Shown here one piece after another: positions 34,337-46,647 of a DNA stretch of 64,000 nt (position 1 is its first letter; every line of letters starts with the position of its first letter). Made by a program: the position numbers and the translations under genes. The notes under the pieces were generated by a model, which did no database searches, was not told where the DNA came from, and saw only the letters and a program-made list of their open reading frames with translations. The stretch covers positions 1,504,001 through 1,568,000 of the forward strand of contig OY761556.1 of the NCBI GenBank assembly GCA_963664705.1. Direction: 5' to 3'. The DNA is from Acidobacteriota bacterium (GTDB taxonomy: Bacteria; Acidobacteriota; UBA6911).

Positions 34337-34359
34337 TGAGCGGGAGTAATTCAGCGGTA
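34337..34359 (+). repeat. Left attachment site: duplicate of the tRNA-Gly 5' end
   Basis: TGAGCGGGAGTAATTCAGCGGTA identical to 44750-44772. Confidence 0.92.
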
Positions 34360-34487: not shown

Positions 34488-34598
34488 TGTTGCGGTATTG
34501 GTGCGACGGAGTAATAGTAATTTCGGCTGGGTGATAATTAATTCAAATTTTACACCCTAATTTCTAGCAGTCGCACCAGTCGCACCAATACCGCAACA
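34488..34598. repeat. Perfect 20-bp inverted repeat (candidate integrase arm sites)
   Basis: TGTTGCGGTATTGGTGCGAC (34488-34507) and GTCGCACCAATACCGCAACA (34579-34598); a 17/19 copy at 44683-44701. Confidence 0.75.
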
Positions 34599-34602
34599 GA
34601 CT

Positions 34603-35700
34603 ATGAAAATTGCCCTACGATCCAGACCGACTACGATACGTGGCAAACGAAGCCTGTACCTTGATTTTTACGACAACGGCAGGCGCTGGTATGAAAGCCT
34701 GGGCTTATACACGATCGGCGATCGTGAGGCGGATAAACAGACAAAACGGCTTGCAGAAACTATCCTCAGCCAGCGGCGGCTTGATGCTGCATCGACTAAC
34801 AACGCGCTGCCAGCGCCATCACGATCAAAAGCCGATTTTGTGGAATTCTGCCGGAAGATCGGAGAGGAAAAGCCTTCGGAGAATACCCAGCTTGTTTGGA
34901 AAAACACCATTTCCCATTTAAAAGCCTTCGCGGGGGAACATGGAATTACGCTCGGGGCCATCAATGAAGCTTTTCTGGAAAGATTCCGCGACTACCTTTT
35001 GACGAAGGTGAGCCCGAATACAGCGCTCACCTATTTTTCCAGAATAAAGACAGCCTGCAGGAAAGCGGCGAATGAGCAAATCATCCCGCGTTATGTCGGA
35101 AGCGGTATCACGATCAGAAAACAGCAGACTAACCGCGCATACTTGACACTTGAGGAACTGCAAAAGCTCGAACGGACTCCAAGCGCAAACCAGGCGGTAA
35201 GGGATGGCTTCCTGTTCTCATGTTTTGCAGGATTGCGATATAGCGACGTAAAAGCGCTGACCTGGGATCAGGTAAGGCGAGAGGGAAATCATTCGTTCTT
35301 GTGGTTCTCACAAGAGAAAACAGGGGATTTTCAATCACTCCCGCTATCTCACCAGGCGCTTGAAATTCTGAACGCGCAGCAAAAGGCAAAACCTTCGCCG
35401 AAGATCCGGCAGGAAATTGGGAAAGACATTATTTTCAAGCTTCCTGCTCAGCAGACTGTGGACAAGGCTTTGAAGCGCTGGGCGAAGCGGGCCGGGATAG
35501 AAAAAACCGTTAGTTTTCATGTGGGCCGTCATACCTTCGCAACACTGGCGCTCACCTATGGTGCGGATCTTTACGTTGTTTCAAAGCTGCTCGGGCATCG
35601 GCGGATAGAGACAACGGAAATATATGCAAAAGTCGTGGATAAATCCAAGCGGGATGCAGTTACACTTCTGCCAAAGCTCAAACGAGCGCCGAAAAAATAA
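34603..35700 (+). CDS. Tyrosine integrase with N-terminal arm-binding region
   Basis: SLYLDFY, GLRYSD, EKTG, FHVGRHTFAT, LLGH, TEIYAK give the R-K-H-R-H-Y catalytic set. Confidence 0.95.
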   Translation: MKIALRSRPTTIRGKRSLYLDFYDNGRRWYESLGLYTIGDREADKQTKRLAETILSQRRLDAASTNNALPAPSRSKADFVEFCRKIGEEKPSENTQLVWKNTISHLKAFAGEHGITLGAINEAFLERFRDYLLTKVSPNTALTYFSRIKTACRKAANEQIIPRYVGSGITIRKQQTNRAYLTLEELQKLERTPSANQAVRDGFLFSCFAGLRYSDVKALTWDQVRREGNHSFLWFSQEKTGDFQSLPLSHQALEILNAQQKAKPSPKIRQEIGKDIIFKLPAQQTVDKALKRWAKRAGIEKTVSFHVGRHTFATLALTYGADLYVVSKLLGHRRIETTEIYAKVVDKSKRDAVTLLPKLKRAPKK

Positions 35701-35929
35701 AGCCGATAGTCTTTAGATCCTTCACAGATATATCCAAAAAATATCAAATATCCTATAAATGTGTCTGATTAAACAGAACACCTAAAAATATTTGTGTAGC
35801 GCTGACAGCCTTTATTTATAAGGGTTTAGTGGCGATATAGGGGGGTGTCTTACAAGATAGGACATAGTTTTTTTATTTGCCCATCTTTAATCTACTACTC
35901 GGCTGTTGTTGTTATTAGGAGATTCCAAA

Positions 35930-36217
35930 ATGACCAATCGTGAAATTGCCGAAAAATTAGAGAGCATAGAATCTAAGCTTTCCGATCTGACCAAGGCCTC
36001 AGAAAAACCCTTTGATTTGGCGGCGGCTGCGGACTATCTGAAGATGAGCAGAAGCCACTTATATCAATTGACCTGCCGAGGAATAATAGCGCACTACAAG
36101 CCAGGCGGAAAGCGAATCTACTTTGAAAAATGTGATTTGGATGAATACGTGCGGCGGAACCGTATCAGATCGCAATTCGAATTGGAATCTGAAGCTGCCA
36201 ACCGGATATCGGCTTAA
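35930..36217 (+). CDS. Excisionase-type helix-turn-helix protein
   Basis: AAADYLKMSRSHLYQLT...IAHYKPGGKRIYFEKCDLDEY. Confidence 0.88.
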   Translation: MTNREIAEKLESIESKLSDLTKASEKPFDLAAAADYLKMSRSHLYQLTCRGIIAHYKPGGKRIYFEKCDLDEYVRRNRIRSQFELESEAANRISA

Positions 36218-36229
36218 GAAGGCTTCCCA

Positions 36230-37087
36230 ATGAATAAGTTTTGGTGGTTTCCATTTCCTGTCGAATGGTGGCTGGTTACTACACGGTTCATGACTGCAGA
36301 ACAGGCAGGCTTTCTAATCAACCTGATGGCTGAATGTGGAAATTCGCCTGAGTGCGGAATTCCCGCCGACCCTGATACTTTGTGGCAGCGGGCGCGCGCA
36401 AAAAATCGAAAACGATTCGAATTTTTATCAAAACCAGTCCTGGAATTGTTTGTACTCCGAAATGACTTCTATTACTCACGAAAATTGCTCGAACTGAAAG
36501 AAGACCTTGACGAAAAGACAGCCCGCCGTCAAGCAGCTGGAAAAGCTGGAGCTACAGCCCGCTGGGGATCAGAAAGCGCAAAGCAACCGGATAGCAATGC
36601 TATGCGTTTGCCATCAACGCCGCATGCGGATGCCATAAAATCGCAATGCGAAACAATGGCATATACAGTTACAGATACAATTAGAGATACAGAACATAAC
36701 AGAACAGAAGATAAAAATACTTCTTGCGCTGCGGCAAGCGCCGCGCCGGAACCAGTCGAGCCGGTTATATCGCTTCCTCTGAATGATGGAACTGAATTTT
36801 CAGTTGAGCAAAAAATGCTCGATGAGTGGCTAGAACTTTATCCTGGCGTCGATGTGCGCCAGGCGCTTCGGAATATGCGCGGCTGGCTTCTCGGTAATCC
36901 ACGGAATCGAAAAACCTGGAGCGGCATATACAAATTCATCGTTAGTTGGCTCTCAAAGGATCAAAACAAAGCGCCAGCACTCAGTGGCAAGAACGGCCAC
37001 CGGAAACTAGCCAACATAGCCAGGCTGACAGAGGAAGATCTTTCGGGCGGACGGACCATGAATCCAGATGGGACTTATCGATTATGA
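36230..37087 (+). CDS. Phage replication initiator (YdaU/DUF1376-like N-terminus)
   Basis: WWFPFPVEWWLVTTRFMTAEQAG, AGKAGATARW, DTIRDTE linker, LYPGVDVRQALRNMRGWL...RKT...FIVSWL. Confidence 0.8.
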   Translation: MNKFWWFPFPVEWWLVTTRFMTAEQAGFLINLMAECGNSPECGIPADPDTLWQRARAKNRKRFEFLSKPVLELFVLRNDFYYSRKLLELKEDLDEKTARRQAAGKAGATARWGSESAKQPDSNAMRLPSTPHADAIKSQCETMAYTVTDTIRDTEHNRTEDKNTSCAAASAAPEPVEPVISLPLNDGTEFSVEQKMLDEWLELYPGVDVRQALRNMRGWLLGNPRNRKTWSGIYKFIVSWLSKDQNKAPALSGKNGHRKLANIARLTEEDLSGGRTMNPDGTYRL

Positions 37088-37228: not shown

Positions 37229-38047
37229 ATGGAACAGGCAAGCGTTGTTACGGATCAGCAATTACGGGCGAGCTTCCGCGCTGTAATCGGCAAATCTGAA
37301 TCTGTGATTGTCAGAGAAGACAAGAAAATCTGGCGTGCATTCCACGCGCAGCTACCCGGACCGCATAAGCCAATAACGCGCGAGCAAAGCAAACGCTGCG
37401 CTGAAGCTGAGGGGCTTGTGTACGAAGGGCTTCAGCCCTGGGGATTTTGCCTATACCGGAAAGATGCGAAAAGGCCCGAAATTCGGCTAATGGCATATGC
37501 GCGTGAAAAGGGATTGCATTATGTCGATGCGCCTGCATCGGGTTCCGCAAGCACGTCCAAAGGCGCGACGGTTGAACCTGGCCAGGCCATCGTCAAAAAC
37601 GATGTTCCGCAAGCTAAGCCTGCCCAGAAAAAAACGTTCAAGACTCCAAGACAAATTGCGGCGGATGCAGTGCAACTGGTAGAAACCGCGCGGGCAGAAG
37701 GCCGCATTCTCAGCAGTTCCGATGCTGTGAATATGGTTTTAGCCAGGCCCGGAACTGTTTGCTCAGCAATGCTCAAGGAAAGCGTGAGCCCGCACAGTGA
37801 TGAGCCCGCATCCGCCGTGGTGGATAGCCAGGTGCGCCAGGTGCAGGACTTGGTTGCGTATGAAGCGGCGCACGGTCGCAAACTCACAAACGCCGAAGCC
37901 CTGGCGATAGTTACGCAAAAAGAAAGCGCCGAAGATCCGAAGCAGCTGGCACGCAGGGCGCAGCAATATGTTGACGCCCAGGCCGCGCTGGGGCACCGAG
38001 TAACCATGGCCGAGGCAGTCTCGACTATTTTACAAACAAACCACTAA
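37229..38047 (+). CDS. Hypothetical protein with three helix-Gly-helix repeats resembling phage scaffold C-termini
   Basis: RBS AGAAAGGA; repeats ...ARAEGRILSSSDAV, ...EAAHGRKLTNAEAL, ...QAALGHRVTMAEAV. Confidence 0.65.
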   Translation: MEQASVVTDQQLRASFRAVIGKSESVIVREDKKIWRAFHAQLPGPHKPITREQSKRCAEAEGLVYEGLQPWGFCLYRKDAKRPEIRLMAYAREKGLHYVDAPASGSASTSKGATVEPGQAIVKNDVPQAKPAQKKTFKTPRQIAADAVQLVETARAEGRILSSSDAVNMVLARPGTVCSAMLKESVSPHSDEPASAVVDSQVRQVQDLVAYEAAHGRKLTNAEALAIVTQKESAEDPKQLARRAQQYVDAQAALGHRVTMAEAVSTILQTNH

Positions 38048-38057
38048 AGGAGGCCGT

Positions 38058-38486
38058 ATGAAAGAACTTGTTGAAGTTCAAGATTTCTATAATGCGATCG
38101 GGCGCGCTGTAAAGGAAAGCGCCACACGAGAAGCGCTCACCTGGCTGGAACGAGTGCGCGCGGCAATTGAATACGCAGAGCAGCGGGAACTGTCAGAATC
38201 GGAGCGCGATGATATCGCGGCTATAAGAAGGCGGCTTGCGTTTGAAGCCTTAGAAATTCAGCAGCGACTGCTTCCGGTACTGAAGCAGCTTGAGACCGCG
38301 CTGTTTGATGCAGCTGGAAAAGCGGCAATTGATACCGCGTGCACCGGTGTCACCAAGGATTTTGGCGGCGGAAACGTTAAGCGCTATCCGGCTCCATTTC
38401 AGCATCCCGCTGAATACGAAAAGGCAAATTCGGAACCAAAGCGGGAACCATTCCTGCAGCGCCTTTTTGGGAAGGGAGCCGCTTAG
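38058..38486 (+). CDS. Hypothetical alpha-helical protein
   Basis: Strong RBS AAGGAGG; operon position. Confidence 0.75.
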   Translation: MKELVEVQDFYNAIGRAVKESATREALTWLERVRAAIEYAEQRELSESERDDIAAIRRRLAFEALEIQQRLLPVLKQLETALFDAAGKAAIDTACTGVTKDFGGGNVKRYPAPFQHPAEYEKANSEPKREPFLQRLFGKGAA

Positions 38487-38678
38487 ATGTCTGAACAAAT
38501 TGCGGGCAGGCTCAATGACATTCTATTGGGCTTAACTTATCGAAGAAGTTCGGATGATTTAGGGAGTGTACAGCTTCCTGAGTGCGCGCGAAAAGCGATT
38601 GTTTCCGCACTTCTCCCAGAGATCAAAAAAATGATTGCTGAAAACTCTTCCCAGGCTGAAGAAAAGCCCAGCAAATGA
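38487..38678 (+). CDS. Small hypothetical protein
   Basis: ATG immediately follows the previous TAG. Confidence 0.55.
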   Translation: MSEQIAGRLNDILLGLTYRRSSDDLGSVQLPECARKAIVSALLPEIKKMIAENSSQAEEKPSK

Positions 38679-39201
38679 TTTGGCCAGGCGCGCCCACGGC
38701 GTTTCGCTTGACCGAGGCTTTCAAACCTTTCACTCGGTCAGGTGGTTTCCGTGGCAGAGCGCCGATACCTGCGGCAAGCTTCTGGAGCGTGGGCGGCTTG
38801 TCGCAAATAACCAGCGATAGGAAATATCATCGGGAATGCGATTCAAAACCGAAATGACAGAATCAAACCGAAACGATTACGGAAAATGCAAGAGTGCCCG
38901 GCGCTGCGATTGCCAGGCACTCTTTTTAGTTTGCGCGCTTGTCTCGTTTGATAGGACATTGGCAGCAGGTACACCCCAAGGATAGAGTGACGGCATGGTA
39001 AGAGATTTGAAAGAGTTAGGGCCAGTGCAGAAGCGCGGCGGGGGTGGTACACCCAGAGGCGTGAGGGTGTTTTTGAAGGCTGGAGGTACTGGTAGGAAAT
39101 TTTTTAGCGCGGGTACCGGCGATGGCGGGCTTTGGCTTACGTAACGGGTTTTTTAAGTCGTGTCAGTGTCAGTTTGGCTAACCCTGGGAGGGTAATCGGA
39201 A

Positions 39202-39753
39202 ATGGCAAATAGATCTGCTGGTAACCTGGTAAGAGTGACGCAGATCATGGCGGATTTTGGATGCTCTGAGCGCCAGGTTGGCCGCTTCGTTTCTGAGGGG
39301 ATGCCCAAAGCCAGGTACGGCAAATATGATCGGCTGGCGTGTCTTATGTGGTACTCGAAAAAGCTAAGGTGCGACCTTGATGCTGCTGGCGATATAACCG
39401 ACTTAGAGCGGGAACAAATCAGAGTACAGAGAGCAACCGCAGATCTAAAGGAAATGGAACTTAGCGATAGACGCGCCAGCTTGATACCGCGCTGGATACA
39501 TGAAAAGCACGTACAGATGGCTTTTGACGCTGTGCGGCGGGCTATCCTGCCAATCGCAGAGCAGATCGCGCCTGAACTTGAAGGCCTGGATAGATTGGAG
39601 ATCAAAACCAGGCTGCACAAGAAGTACCGCGATGTTTTAAGCCAGCTGGCCACGGGCGCGGATGTGGTAATGGAAGTACCTTCCGACGATGATGCGGGCA
39701 CCGAAGTTAAGCAGCCGATCGCAAAGAAGCAAAAAACAAAAGGGCGTAAGTAG
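39202..39753 (+). CDS. Terminase small subunit, lambda Nu1-like
   Basis: Winged HTH ADFGCSERQVGRFVSEGMP...GKYDRLACLMWY, coiled coil EREQIRVQRATADLKEMEL, AILPIAEQIAPEL. Confidence 0.8.
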   Translation: MANRSAGNLVRVTQIMADFGCSERQVGRFVSEGMPKARYGKYDRLACLMWYSKKLRCDLDAAGDITDLEREQIRVQRATADLKEMELSDRRASLIPRWIHEKHVQMAFDAVRRAILPIAEQIAPELEGLDRLEIKTRLHKKYRDVLSQLATGADVVMEVPSDDDAGTEVKQPIAKKQKTKGRK

Positions 39754-39780: not shown

Positions 39781-39975
39781 ATGCGCGCGCGATATCACAG
39801 CGTTTGCCGTACTTGTAAAAAGCGCATCCGACCAGGTGAGGAAATTCGTTTCGTGCGCGAAAATTTCACGATTCATCAAAACTGTTCGCCCAAAGTACCG
39901 CCGAAGTCTTCCGCGCTGAATCAGCAACGGACGCAGCTTGCCCTTGAACGGTTTGAGCGCGCCGGATTCCGGTAG
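39781..39975 (+). CDS. Small Zn-finger-like protein
   Basis: RBS GGAGGGAG; CRTC...IRPGEEI...HQNC. Confidence 0.65.
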   Translation: MRARYHSVCRTCKKRIRPGEEIRFVRENFTIHQNCSPKVPPKSSALNQQRTQLALERFERAGFR

Positions 39976-42865: not shown

Positions 42866-43141
42866 ATGATTCCGGCAACTACTCTGTTTTGGGTGATAGT
42901 GGCCGCGCTCTATGCGATTATCGGGGCATTCTGGGCAGGCGCTGCAAAGGTACACGGGGCAATACGCTGTATAGCGATCTTGAGCGGAGAAGTGAAAGAG
43001 GAATGGCCAGCGGCCCGCAATTATTACCATTGGATTAGGCCCTTGGGATTTTTCTTTCTGTGGCCGCTGTTTTGTTGGATCGCGGATTATAGAGTAGAAA
43101 AGGAACGGCGCGCCGAAGATAAGCGGCGCGCCGGGTCATAG
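42866..43141 (+). CDS. Small two-TM membrane protein
   Basis: Two hydrophobic segments and a charged tail; begins 5 bp after the TMP stop. Confidence 0.6.
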   Translation: MIPATTLFWVIVAALYAIIGAFWAGAAKVHGAIRCIAILSGEVKEEWPAARNYYHWIRPLGFFFLWPLFCWIADYRVEKERRAEDKRRAGS

Positions 43142-43950: not shown

Positions 43951-44562
43951 ATGTTCTGCCAGAAATGTGGGAAAGAGATTCCTGACCAATCGACCTTTTG
44001 CAATCATTGCGGCAATAAGAGCACGGATAATGCGGAAAAGAGCCAGAAGAAGAGCAGAAGCAGCGTTCTCCCCTGGGTACTTGTTCTTATTCTGGCAACT
44101 GCAGTGGTTGCGCTATGGCTCACAAGCGGAACAGTAAAGAAATCAGAGCCGGAAACGGCTGCTATGTCACAGGCAACTAAAGTGAGGGAACAAGTTTTTA
44201 TTCCGAAAGAAGATTCCCTTATTTCGGGAACCATAAACATTCCAGCTGGGAAGATACATGAAGCCCGAATCTTGATATCGGAAAAGATGCGCAATCCCAG
44301 GATAGTGGGCCATTTCAGCGCTTCCGGTGGATCGGGCAACGATGTTCAAGTGGTTCTCACGGATGAAGACAATTTCGTTAATTGGAAGAACGGGCACCAG
44401 GGCCGGGCTTTGTATAATACCGATAAGATTACCCAGGACTCAATTAACGCCAGAATTCCAGGGCCTGGAATTTACTATTTAGCCTTTAGTAATTCCTTTT
44501 CGACATTCACTGAAAAGCAGGTTACTGCAGACATCAAGCTGAAGTACGAAATTCTTCAATAG
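43951..44562 (+). CDS. Zinc-ribbon, single-TM protein with a beta-rich external domain
   Basis: MFCQKCG...FCNHCG, TM helix, GHFSASGGSGND, GIYYLAFSNSFS; AAGGAGG RBS. Confidence 0.8.
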   Translation: MFCQKCGKEIPDQSTFCNHCGNKSTDNAEKSQKKSRSSVLPWVLVLILATAVVALWLTSGTVKKSEPETAAMSQATKVREQVFIPKEDSLISGTINIPAGKIHEARILISEKMRNPRIVGHFSASGGSGNDVQVVLTDEDNFVNWKNGHQGRALYNTDKITQDSINARIPGPGIYYLAFSNSFSTFTEKQVTADIKLKYEILQ

Positions 44563-44752
44563 AGAGATTAAACGGGTAAGCTCTTGAAAAAAAATCCGTT
44601 CCAGGATAAATTGTTGCCCGTGATGAGCACGAAAGAGCAACGGGCAATTCGGAATGGCAACCCCATACACCAGAATTTGACTTGTTGCGAAATTGGTGCG
44701 AATAGGAAATTGCAAAAACAGTAAGTCTATCAATTTCAATAAGATAGATTGA

Positions 44753-44827
<75 letters not shown>

Positions 44828-45243: not shown

Positions 45244-45592
45244 ATGGAGTGGATTCCTGTTCGCTTTTACGGCTCCGCGCGGGATGTAATTCATGGTTGG
45301 CCGCTGGAGGTTAAGAAGGAATTAGGGTCAGTATTGACGAGACTTCAGAAAGGCGACTCCATTGGAATGCCTGATGTTCGGCCCATGCCCGATATCAGCC
45401 CGCAGGTTTCAGAGATCAGAATACCTGACAGGAGTGGAAATTGCAGAGCATTGTATGCAATCCGAACGAAATTTGGAATCTTGCTGTTCCACGCGTTCCA
45501 AAAAAAAGAGCCGCAAAACCTCCGAAAGGGAGAAGAAGACCGCGCGAACTCGACTTGAAGCTTTTTTGAAAGAACTTGAGGAAGGGCAATGA
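45244..45592 (+). pseudogene. RelE/HigB (Gp49-like) toxin, frameshifted at an A8 run
   Basis: RPMPDISPQVSEIRI...RALY...LFHAFQKK; expected end SRKTSEREKKTARTRL is in the +1 frame after 45500-45507. Confidence 0.8.
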
Positions 45593-45891
45593 AACAAAAA
45601 AGGGAAGGCAGCAAAACCGTTACGGCGAAGACACCGAACGATATAGGACGGATACTGGGGCTTACTCCAGGGGATATTGCTCTTATGAAATACAAGACAG
45701 AGCTATCGCATCTGGCCGTCAAATCGATCCGGGAATCGGGACTCGCGCTCGGTGAAATTGTAAAAAGATCCGGGGTTGCTCGCTCGAAAGTGTCCGCGAT
45801 AAAAAACGGAGCAACTGTTTCTGTTTCCTGTGATCTGTTAGTGAAAATTATCGGTGCCACGGGCGTTGAAGTTCAACCCAATGCTGCCTAA
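45589..45891 (+). CDS. XRE-type HTH antitoxin
   Basis: ESGLALGEIVKRSGVARSKVSAIKNG...SCDLLVKI; ATGA overlap with the toxin's restored stop. Confidence 0.8.
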   Translation: MKQKREGSKTVTAKTPNDIGRILGLTPGDIALMKYKTELSHLAVKSIRESGLALGEIVKRSGVARSKVSAIKNGATVSVSCDLLVKIIGATGVEVQPNAA

Positions 45892-46029
45892 GATACCGCC
45901 AGGTCGTCCTCTCGAAAGAAAAAGGCTTTCCGATTCCGGACTGAAAACTCTGGTCCGCAATCTGGATGGATGGCTCTCAAATTCAGTGCTTGTCCAACCC
46001 AAGCCAGTTTGATTAAGGAGGAATTGAGG

Positions 46030-46647
46030 GTGAATTCCAAAAGAGTGGCGCCTGTTTATCAAATTAAAATTAGTCTGCGGGATACGGAACCCCCTGTTTG
46101 GAGGTGCATTCAGGTCCCATCGAGCTATAGTTTTTGGGATTTGCATGTCGCTATCCAGGATGCCATGGGTTGGACGGATTCCCATCTCCACATGTTTCGC
46201 GTCTCCTCCACAAATAAGCGGAAAGGGGTAAACATAGGGATTCCGGATGAGGACTTCGATGATATCCGGATCTTGGCCGGATGGGAAATCCCACTTTCCC
46301 TGCATTTCCGAGAACCTGGGGCCAAGGGAATCTATGAGTATGATTTTGGGGATAGCTGGGAGCACGACATTCTTCTTGAAGGAGTGCTCATTCCAGAGGT
46401 GGGGGCGAAATATCCGCGGTGCCTCGCGGGGGAGAATGCGTGTCCGCCTGAGGATTGCGGAGGGATTGGAGGATACTACAACCTTCTGGAAATCATTCGT
46501 GACCCGCTTCACGAAGAGTACGAAGAAAGTCTGATTTGGCTAAAGAGCATGGTTCCCGGAAATGTCCCGTTTGACTCGACGAAATTTGCTCCGGAAGAAG
46601 TTCATTTCAATAACCCGAAGAAGAGGCTCAGATCCCTTCACATCTGA
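46030..46647 (+). CDS. Plasmid pRiA4b ORF-3 family protein
   Basis: YQIKISL...PPVWR, DLHVAIQDAMGWTDSHLHMF, YEYDFGDSWEH, ACPPEDCGGIGGY. Confidence 0.9.
   Translation: MNSKRVAPVYQIKISLRDTEPPVWRCIQVPSSYSFWDLHVAIQDAMGWTDSHLHMFRVSSTNKRKGVNIGIPDEDFDDIRILAGWEIPLSLHFREPGAKGIYEYDFGDSWEHDILLEGVLIPEVGAKYPRCLAGENACPPEDCGGIGGYYNLLEIIRDPLHEEYEESLIWLKSMVPGNVPFDSTKFAPEEVHFNNPKKRLRSLHI

Follow-up and report, generated by a model that had tools for sequence, protein, structure and literature searches.

Tandem phage scaffold tails on a candidate head-size switcher from a satellite-like island of Acidobacteriota

A design like the one reported here is known from CpmB of SaPI1, a satellite protein in which the C-terminal capsid-binding end of the helper's scaffold is joined to an unrelated N-terminal domain (PMC5644958). 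As described there, CpmB and the 80alpha scaffold are proposed to vie for the same site, and CpmB dimers that straddle capsomers lead to T=4 heads; each 72-aa chain has a single helix-and-hook RIIK tail, and valency is gained by dimerising. Rcm of SaPIpT1028, a larger multi-helical switcher, is likewise said to mirror the scaffold of its helper (PMC12409344), and P4 Sid is another satellite protein that sets head size (PMC6893505). As to the island itself, the cited accounts of the Gram-negative cos PICIs (such as EcCICFT073 and PmCI172) describe elements of about 10 kb with an integrase, an HTH regulator, a replication gene and a cos site, all features also found here, along with TerS in some of them and a lambdoid helper (PMC6092414, PMC6893505).

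Here, we examine a 64,000-nt stretch of an Acidobacteriota bacterium (contig OY761556.1 of assembly GCA_963664705.1, positions 1,504,001 to 1,568,000; hereafter the window), in which a 10.4-kb island at a tRNA-Gly gene encodes P0001, a protein with three scaffold tails in tandem (Table 1). We propose, as a reading with even chances of being right or wrong, that P0001 is a multivalent competitor of a helper's scaffold that would redirect head assembly to small, satellite-sized heads.

Table 1. Features of the island and its integration site (positions in the window)
Feature	Position	Strand	Evidence or remark
attL core, copy of the tRNA-Gly 5' end	34338..34359	+	direct repeat with 44751-44772, spacing 10,413
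20-nt inverted repeats (34488-34507 / 34579-34598)	34488..34598	.	likely integrase arm sites
Tyrosine integrase	34603..35700	+	PF00589 5.6e-22, PF13102, PF17293; phrog_1
Excisionase-type HTH regulator	35906..36217	+	PF12728 1.9e-11; phrog_66 1.7e-5
Likely replication initiator, primosomal/DUF1376-like	36230..37087	+	phrog_3992 1.3e-8; PF07120 0.003, under cut-off
Triple scaffold-tail protein P0001, 272 aa	37229..38047	+	repeats, family profile, AlphaFold2 model
P0001 N-terminal alpha/beta domain, no known family	37229..37528	+	AlphaFold2 pLDDT 91.8 (residues 1-100 modelled alone); 11 family members
Scaffold-tail copy 1, residues 139-171	37643..37741	+	22.0 bits, phage-tail profile
Scaffold-tail copy 2, residues 197-230, lowest-scoring copy	37817..37918	+	13.9 bits, phage-tail profile
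Scaffold-tail copy 3, residues 236-268	37934..38032	+	39.9 bits, phage-tail profile
142-aa protein, no family	38058..38486	+	conserved in L001, 72% identity, dN/dS 0.19
63-aa protein, no family	38487..38678	+	conserved in L001, 69% identity
cos-like site: AGGTACT, 21 nt, 12-mer at 39112-39123 (predicted cohesive end)	39084..39127	+	multi-locus alignment
Small terminase TerS, Nu1-like	39202..39753	+	phrog_57 1.9e-19; 49% over 164 aa to L031 TerS
64-aa Cys-rich protein	39781..39975	+	phrog_1581 4.7e-9; host prophage homolog, E 1e-5
Full-length tape measure protein (TMP), 953 aa	39999..42860	+	several TMP PHROGs
91-aa predicted membrane protein	42866..43141	+	also 3' of TMP in L122 island, E 6e-21
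Cargo, zinc ribbon + GOLD-like protein	43951..44562	+	PF13240, PF01105
attR core	44751..44772	+	direct repeat
tRNA-Gly(CCC), integration target	44753..44827	+	

The initial annotation had singled out three copies of a ~30-aa motif in P0001, and these copies are real. None of 300 shuffles gave a score as high as the best internal repeat of the whole protein; the scores of copies 1 and 3 and of copies 2 and 3 were each reached by 1 of 5000 shuffles, with the pair of copies 1 and 2 being weak (185 of 5000). All three score against the phage-tail profile, and in an AlphaFold2 model from 11 rows each is predicted to fold as a long and then a short helix joined by a loop (H140-156/163-172, H194-214/221-230 and H237-253/260-271), the helix-loop-helix motif being 31 aa long. 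The model has a folded part (1-100), a low-confidence linker (104-130) and then the three units, separated by linkers of about 25 aa (copy 1 to copy 2) and about 5 aa (copy 2 to copy 3). Since the whole model has a pTM of 0.39 (mean pLDDT 80.5), it does not fix the relative arrangement of the units. The ORF is preceded by AAAGGA, a ribosome-binding-like site, and the gene is under purifying selection: compared with its counterpart in a related island (L001), at 39% synonymous divergence, dN/dS is 0.37 for the gene and 0.44, 0.25 and 0.48 for copies 1, 2 and 3, with all three tails intact in both islands and a capsid gene detected in neither.

Where does the motif come from? The earlier reading had likened it to the C-terminal ending of phage protease/scaffold proteins, and the tails of named phages and of viral loci bear this out. 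Eight named phage loci, picked by capsid similarity to a related island, provided 742 ORFs, among which a profile of the three P0001 copies alone, a search that the initial annotation had advised, ranks the proteases of VPHZ6, POA1180 and B3 first, each at its C-terminus (E 0.0015, 0.009 and 0.019; next ORF 0.2). A family profile, which includes P0009 (an S49 protease, see below) and no named phage, matches the last 35-40 protease residues in five of the eight (B3, TJ1, VPHZ6, KS10 and POA1180; E from 2e-11 for B3 to 6e-5 for KS10; next ORF 1.4) and missed Dennis, BcepMu and RcapMu. The source of the motif is represented by B3 ORF36/36Z, KS10 gp28/29 and the VPHZ6 S49 protein (Mu I/Z-type and S49), which have the same pattern at the same C-terminal position; in the B3 and KS10 records, the tail-bearing protease end is annotated as a nested scaffold gene.

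In a wider viral sample (581 loci had such B3-type capsid genes, of which the best 80 were used; tail cut-off 12 bits), 70 of 7,756 ORFs carry the tail, always as a single copy and at most 15 aa from the end. Where a protease was called on the 5' side of the capsid gene, it bears the tail in 59 of 64 cases (10/11 of S49 and 49/53 of Mu I type), with 16 of these 80 loci having no called protease, several due to contig ends. At least 98 further proteins with a tail, all single-copy and C-terminal, are present among 7,997 candidates scored, a set biased to phage tails, and 79 of them match the Mu I type protease. When the host's 97,603 six-frame ORFs are searched with a profile built from 64 phage tails, P0001 comes out at E 8.6e-19 (next 2.2), which is a consistency check and not a fully independent result, the 64 having been selected with the family-trained profile. 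No Pfam family covers the motif, and Pfam and PHROGs gave no useful match for P0001, its copies or 72 tails, so that the match to a DNA-binding or other non-structural domain that would have spoken against the initial annotation did not occur. A PDB sequence search with the repeat profile gave no match to the tail, lambda gpC/Nu3 has no such tail, and none was found in 14 loci of 3-4 kb that contain distant relatives of the capsid (2 from unpublished G159, which enters into no other claim here). As a separate observation, some stand-alone scaffold genes of ~150 aa also end in a tail (L061:7491-7934, L096:546-1031, L097:7422-7913 and L063:7078-7530), and L097 has it on both the stand-alone scaffold gene and the protease.

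Judged by sequence, then, the P0001 motif is the C-terminal tail of the protease/scaffold proteins of phages with B3-type capsids. Such tails probably bind capsid protein, given their position and by analogy to two scaffolds in which the capsid-binding part has been described, namely the helix-turn-helix of P22 (10.1101/2022.12.13.520362) and the last 16 residues of 80alpha (PMC5644958); the account of JBD30, as far as it goes, has no resolved scaffold. The phage protease/scaffolds have one tail behind a protease, whereas P0001 has a new domain in place of the protease and several copies of the tail: P0001 has no Pfam or PHROG match to a protease domain, and the S49 scaffold of L031, a lambda-like phage contig, aligns with it at the tail only (56% over 34 aa for copy 3).

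The new domain (residues 1-100), which folds separately in the model and of which the initial annotation made no mention, has a pTM of 0.82 when modelled alone. Its predicted order of elements is helix-strand-helix-helix-strand-strand, a winged-helix/R3H-like order; the best VIA match is weak (R3H domain 2cpm, Z 5.2, rmsd 4.2, 78 aligned), its structural neighbours (R3H and winged-helix domains, Z 5.2 or less) are in the range of common arrangements, and VIA-align gave middling Z only. BFVD (Foldseek, E 0.001) had no match for the P0001 model or the domain model, and the ESM Atlas had none for the domain and only unnamed clusters, under 0.9, for the copies. Could this domain hold the island's cos or origin DNA, with the tails holding a procapsid, so that P0001 would be an adaptor giving the island a packaging advantage? 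The order of elements with R3H and winged-helix among the best neighbours, the charge of the domain (18 K/R against 13 D/E) and its absence from the best 80 of 581 viral loci would agree with this; however, a best Z of 5.2 at rmsd 4.2 is no more than common arrangements yield, and the scaffold sites are inside the shell, whereas DNA enters later via the portal. The N-terminal domain of CpmB, moreover, is a dimerisation module, and we consider an adaptor improbable.

The P0001 family is rare in the host's class and phylum, being present in 2 of 137 genomes of the class and, with a second profile, in the host genome alone among 401 genomes of the phylum. P0001 has two full-length homologs (65% and 58%), and with a profile 12 matches were obtained among 1.84 billion representatives; in 50,697 phage records, tblastn with the three-copy region as query had a single chance match (E 1). 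The N-terminal domain is common to 11 proteins, P0001 and P0002 included, and is followed by one tail in P0006 and P0011, two in P0004 and P0008, three in P0001, P0002, P0003, P0005, P0007 and P0013, and four in P0012. Multiple tails are therefore not required, as the one-tail members indicate. P0010 and P0014 are tail copies without this domain, and P0009, which has two copies at its end, is a head maturation protease of the S49 type (phrog_53, 1.4e-81). Genomic context is available for three of the 11 N-domain proteins.

By its gene content, the tRNA-Gly island is satellite-like. Searches with the L031 genes found no match in the island for portal, large terminase, capsid, decoration, tube or tail chaperone, and no PHROG match for portal, large terminase, capsid or tail tube was found among 13 ORFs. 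A third copy of the 20-nt inverted repeat is at 44683-44701. Just outside attR, a Gp49/RelE-like and HTH pair and a pRiA4b ORF3-like gene occupy window positions 45244-46647. If the island were instead a decayed prophage, P0001 would be a rearranged leftover of a scaffold gene; TerS, TMP and the cos site are of phage origin, and no excised or empty-site joint was seen in three low-depth assemblies (depth about 4.6), one contig of which covers the left flank and the island up to 44788. Yet both att cores are intact and the ORFs unbroken, phage scaffolds are single-tailed in 70 of 70 cases (best 80 of 581 loci), and four islands, inserted at three types of tRNA gene, are alike in size and layout and differ in cargo, all of which makes decay highly improbable.

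These four islands measure 10.0-10.4 kb. The L001 island, like that of the window at tRNA-Gly, shares the core from the HTH gene to TerS, has other cargo and no TMP, and is about 10.0 kb long, an alignment estimate as its left end is missing. Its cargo (L001:3774-8176), a WD40 protein of 860 aa with a signal peptide plus two unknown proteins in place of the TMP block, leaves the total length nearly as in the window island. The L122 island (L122:5353-15607; tRNA-Glu, att spacing 10,208) has a cos-like site, a TMP (42% identical to that of the window) and a TerS-like stretch from which no clean ORF was called; portal, large terminase and capsid were not detected in it. It encodes an S49 protease that ends in two tails (23.9 and 11.5 bits) and is 58% identical to P0009, with which it forms a 100/100 clade in a tree of 20 S49 rows; the clade has a long branch and is provisionally placed within the lambda-like S49s. 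The initiators of L001, L122 and the fourth island all differ from that of the window, and a TMP is present in two of the four.

The fourth island (G114, locus L014; tRNA-Arg, att spacing 10,013) has the two-tail P0004 immediately 5' of a phrog_1005 B3-type capsid gene (59% identical to the B3 capsid), followed by TerS; this pair is at L014:8394-9968, in an island without portal or large terminase. The island's own capsid could be a Ccm-like switcher. Satellites that bring a capsid are known, and P0004 stands at the scaffold position before the capsid gene, from which P0001 might be read as the scaffold that such an island uses for a capsid of its own, left as a remnant in the window after loss of the capsid gene. 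Against this, the window and L001 islands, where no capsid gene was detected, keep three intact tails under purifying selection, and they carry more tails than the capsid-bearing island; there is thus only a slender chance that this is the answer.

To which phages, then, might the island owe its parts? Eleven of the best 80 of 581 loci are lambda-like, with TerS, GpA terminase, portal, S49 scaffold, decoration, B3-type capsid and TMP; one of them, L031, is a 41,787-bp contig whose S49 scaffold has a single tail. Copy 3 is nearer to the tails of this group (median 74, n=9) than to others (median 49, n=57; p 0.0006), as is copy 2 (p 0.015) and copy 1 is not, in comparisons among kin that are not independent. 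The island TMP is 58% identical to the 968-aa TMP of L031 over 970 columns and is 15 aa shorter. The cos-like site aligns with L001, L014, L031, L053, L029 and L027; in L031 the same site (AGGTACT, 21 nt, 12-mer between CGCG-like arms) lies before terS. Its layout resembles that of the lambda ends, to judge from the lambda record, which has GGGTCCT, an element we take to be the one called cosQ, 23 nt before its end and a similar 12-mer at its start. A strict cos pattern, written after the sites were seen, has three matches in the 6.9-Mb host genome (the island site, the resident lambda-like prophage and one other) and occurs in 3/3 other islands, 6/14 lambda-like loci and 1/69 other loci. Taken as sequence matches, TerS, TMP, cos site and tail of the window island all point to one lambda-like phage group. 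The assembly with the capsid-bearing island also contains a lambda-like prophage, L120, whose S49 scaffold has a single tail and whose capsid protein is 70% identical to the island capsid.

The host's own prophages were considered as helpers and rejected. The lambda-like one (~39 kb near tRNA-Leu, G000:C1:5131981-5171186) has GpA terminase, a cos-like site and a distant TMP, yet its capsid is phrog_4523-type; it shares the small Cys-rich gene with the island. The second, HK97-like prophage region (G000:C1:2561000-2583000, with S49 protease, TMP and a methylase-like gene) has an S49 without tail. No B3-type capsid gene or single-tail scaffold was found in the host genome, and as neither prophage has a B3-type capsid or tail, their capsids are the wrong partner to test. 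Elsewhere in this chromosome, about seven tandem ~250-bp repeats (G000:C1:5193400-5195050) appear as repeated ORFs.

In light of these tails, what might P0001 do? We suggest that a cos-type helper of the L031/L120 kind would induce excision and replication of the island, and that each tail would dock where the scaffold binds, on the inward-facing side of the helper's capsid protein, three linked tails there outcompeting the helper scaffold's single one. The short linkers may narrow the angle between neighbouring capsid subunits, in the manner of the CpmB dimer, the island TerS with the helper's large terminase would package DNA from the island cos, and the island TMP may take the place of the helper TMP in the tail. 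That tail binding ends in a smaller head, as argued from CpmB, seems to us a toss-up. The calculated T=3/T=7 volume ratio is 0.28, near the ratio of island to helper size: the islands (10,413, 10,013 and 10,208 bp, and the L001 estimate) are a quarter of helper-type contigs of 39.0 and 41.8 kb, which are possibly partial.

The shared size is equally well explained by a concatemer in a full-size head, since four 10.4-kb copies make up the 41.8-kb L031 contig. P0001 might then be a capsid-binding decoy without size change, its tails blocking or misdirecting helper assembly or recruiting procapsids. The motif evidence supports such a decoy as much as redirection to small heads, four islands of a quarter of helper length each have a cos-like site, and EcCICFT073 is described as packaged in full-size heads (PMC6092414). 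Blocking heads that the island needs would however bring it little gain, closely spaced tandem tails suit cross-linking, and in the known instance of tail sharing, that of CpmB, head size does change (PMC5644958); we therefore hold a decoy to be unlikely, though worth keeping in view. Returning to the size-switching reading, we put forward, with slightly less than even confidence, a wider picture: a hitherto undescribed capsid-switcher family in which one to four tandem helper-scaffold tails on a new domain would set the curvature, and thereby the size, of hijacked heads, within a lineage of ~10-kb cos islands that borrows tails, protease, capsid and tape measure from a single group of lambda-like phages, the L122-type island with S49 plus two tails being an intermediate between phage scaffold and switcher.

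How scaffolds set the triangulation number is an open question, and in CpmB the tethering of two scaffold tails alters head size. The natural series of one to four tails with varied linkers would make the roles of valency and spacing testable on one capsid protein. In addition, the tail is a candidate capsid-binding motif, common to many transposable and lambda-like phages and missing from Pfam, and the tail protein offers a marker for Acidobacteriota satellites that would go unnoticed with standard gene sets. The cited accounts (PMC5644958, PMC12409344, PMC6092414, PMC6893505, PMC12987554, PMC12822802) already treat cos satellites, TMPs encoded by satellites and competition through scaffold tails. 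What is new is that the tails stand in tandem and vary in number, together with the N-terminal domain and the connection to a single phage group; a search of the open-access literature (main texts) found no publication on tandem scaffold repeats in phage satellites.

Compared with PICIs, the window island has an integrase with att repeats at a specific site, a length within about 10-15 kb and no portal, large terminase or tail tube. At the AlpA/MerR position after int it has an HTH_17 excisionase-type gene without AlpA match, and in place of the Pri-Rep module a primosomal/DUF1376-like initiator; unlike the Gram-negative cos PICIs, it has no AlpA or Pri-Rep match and carries a scaffold-tail protein and a TMP. 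It is not a cf-PICI, which would bring its own capsid, portal and both terminase subunits. TMP-encoding satellites like it are the PLEs with their own TMP (PMC12987554) and the EPIPs, which are also described as encoding TerS and a scaffold (PMC12822802), and a chimeric-tail function as in PLEs is possible for the island TMP. PLEs, as presented, have a tail chaperone and baseplate hub besides the TMP, neither of which was detected in the window island (PMC12987554). An EPIP assignment was rejected as well: the integrase is a tyrosine one, and no counterpart was detected to the serine integrase and head-tail adaptors (adaptor plus stopper) given for EPIPs (PMC12822802). Unlike in PLEs and EPIPs, the TMP is optional in window-type islands (2/4).

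Of the two analogies drawn by the initial annotation, that with CpmB holds for the shared tail and the competition, and that with P4 Sid fails, Sid being portrayed as an external cage and not as a copy of the helper scaffold tail (PMC6893505). Rcm differs in belonging to a pac-type staphylococcal system, and its account describes no tandem scaffold-tail copies (PMC12409344). Compared with SaPI1, no CpmA partner was detected in the window island, and its helper would be cos-type. Where the CpmB chain ends in RIIK, a C-terminus absent from the P0001 sequence, the P0001 family carries one to four helix-loop-helix tails of another family in tandem on one chain.
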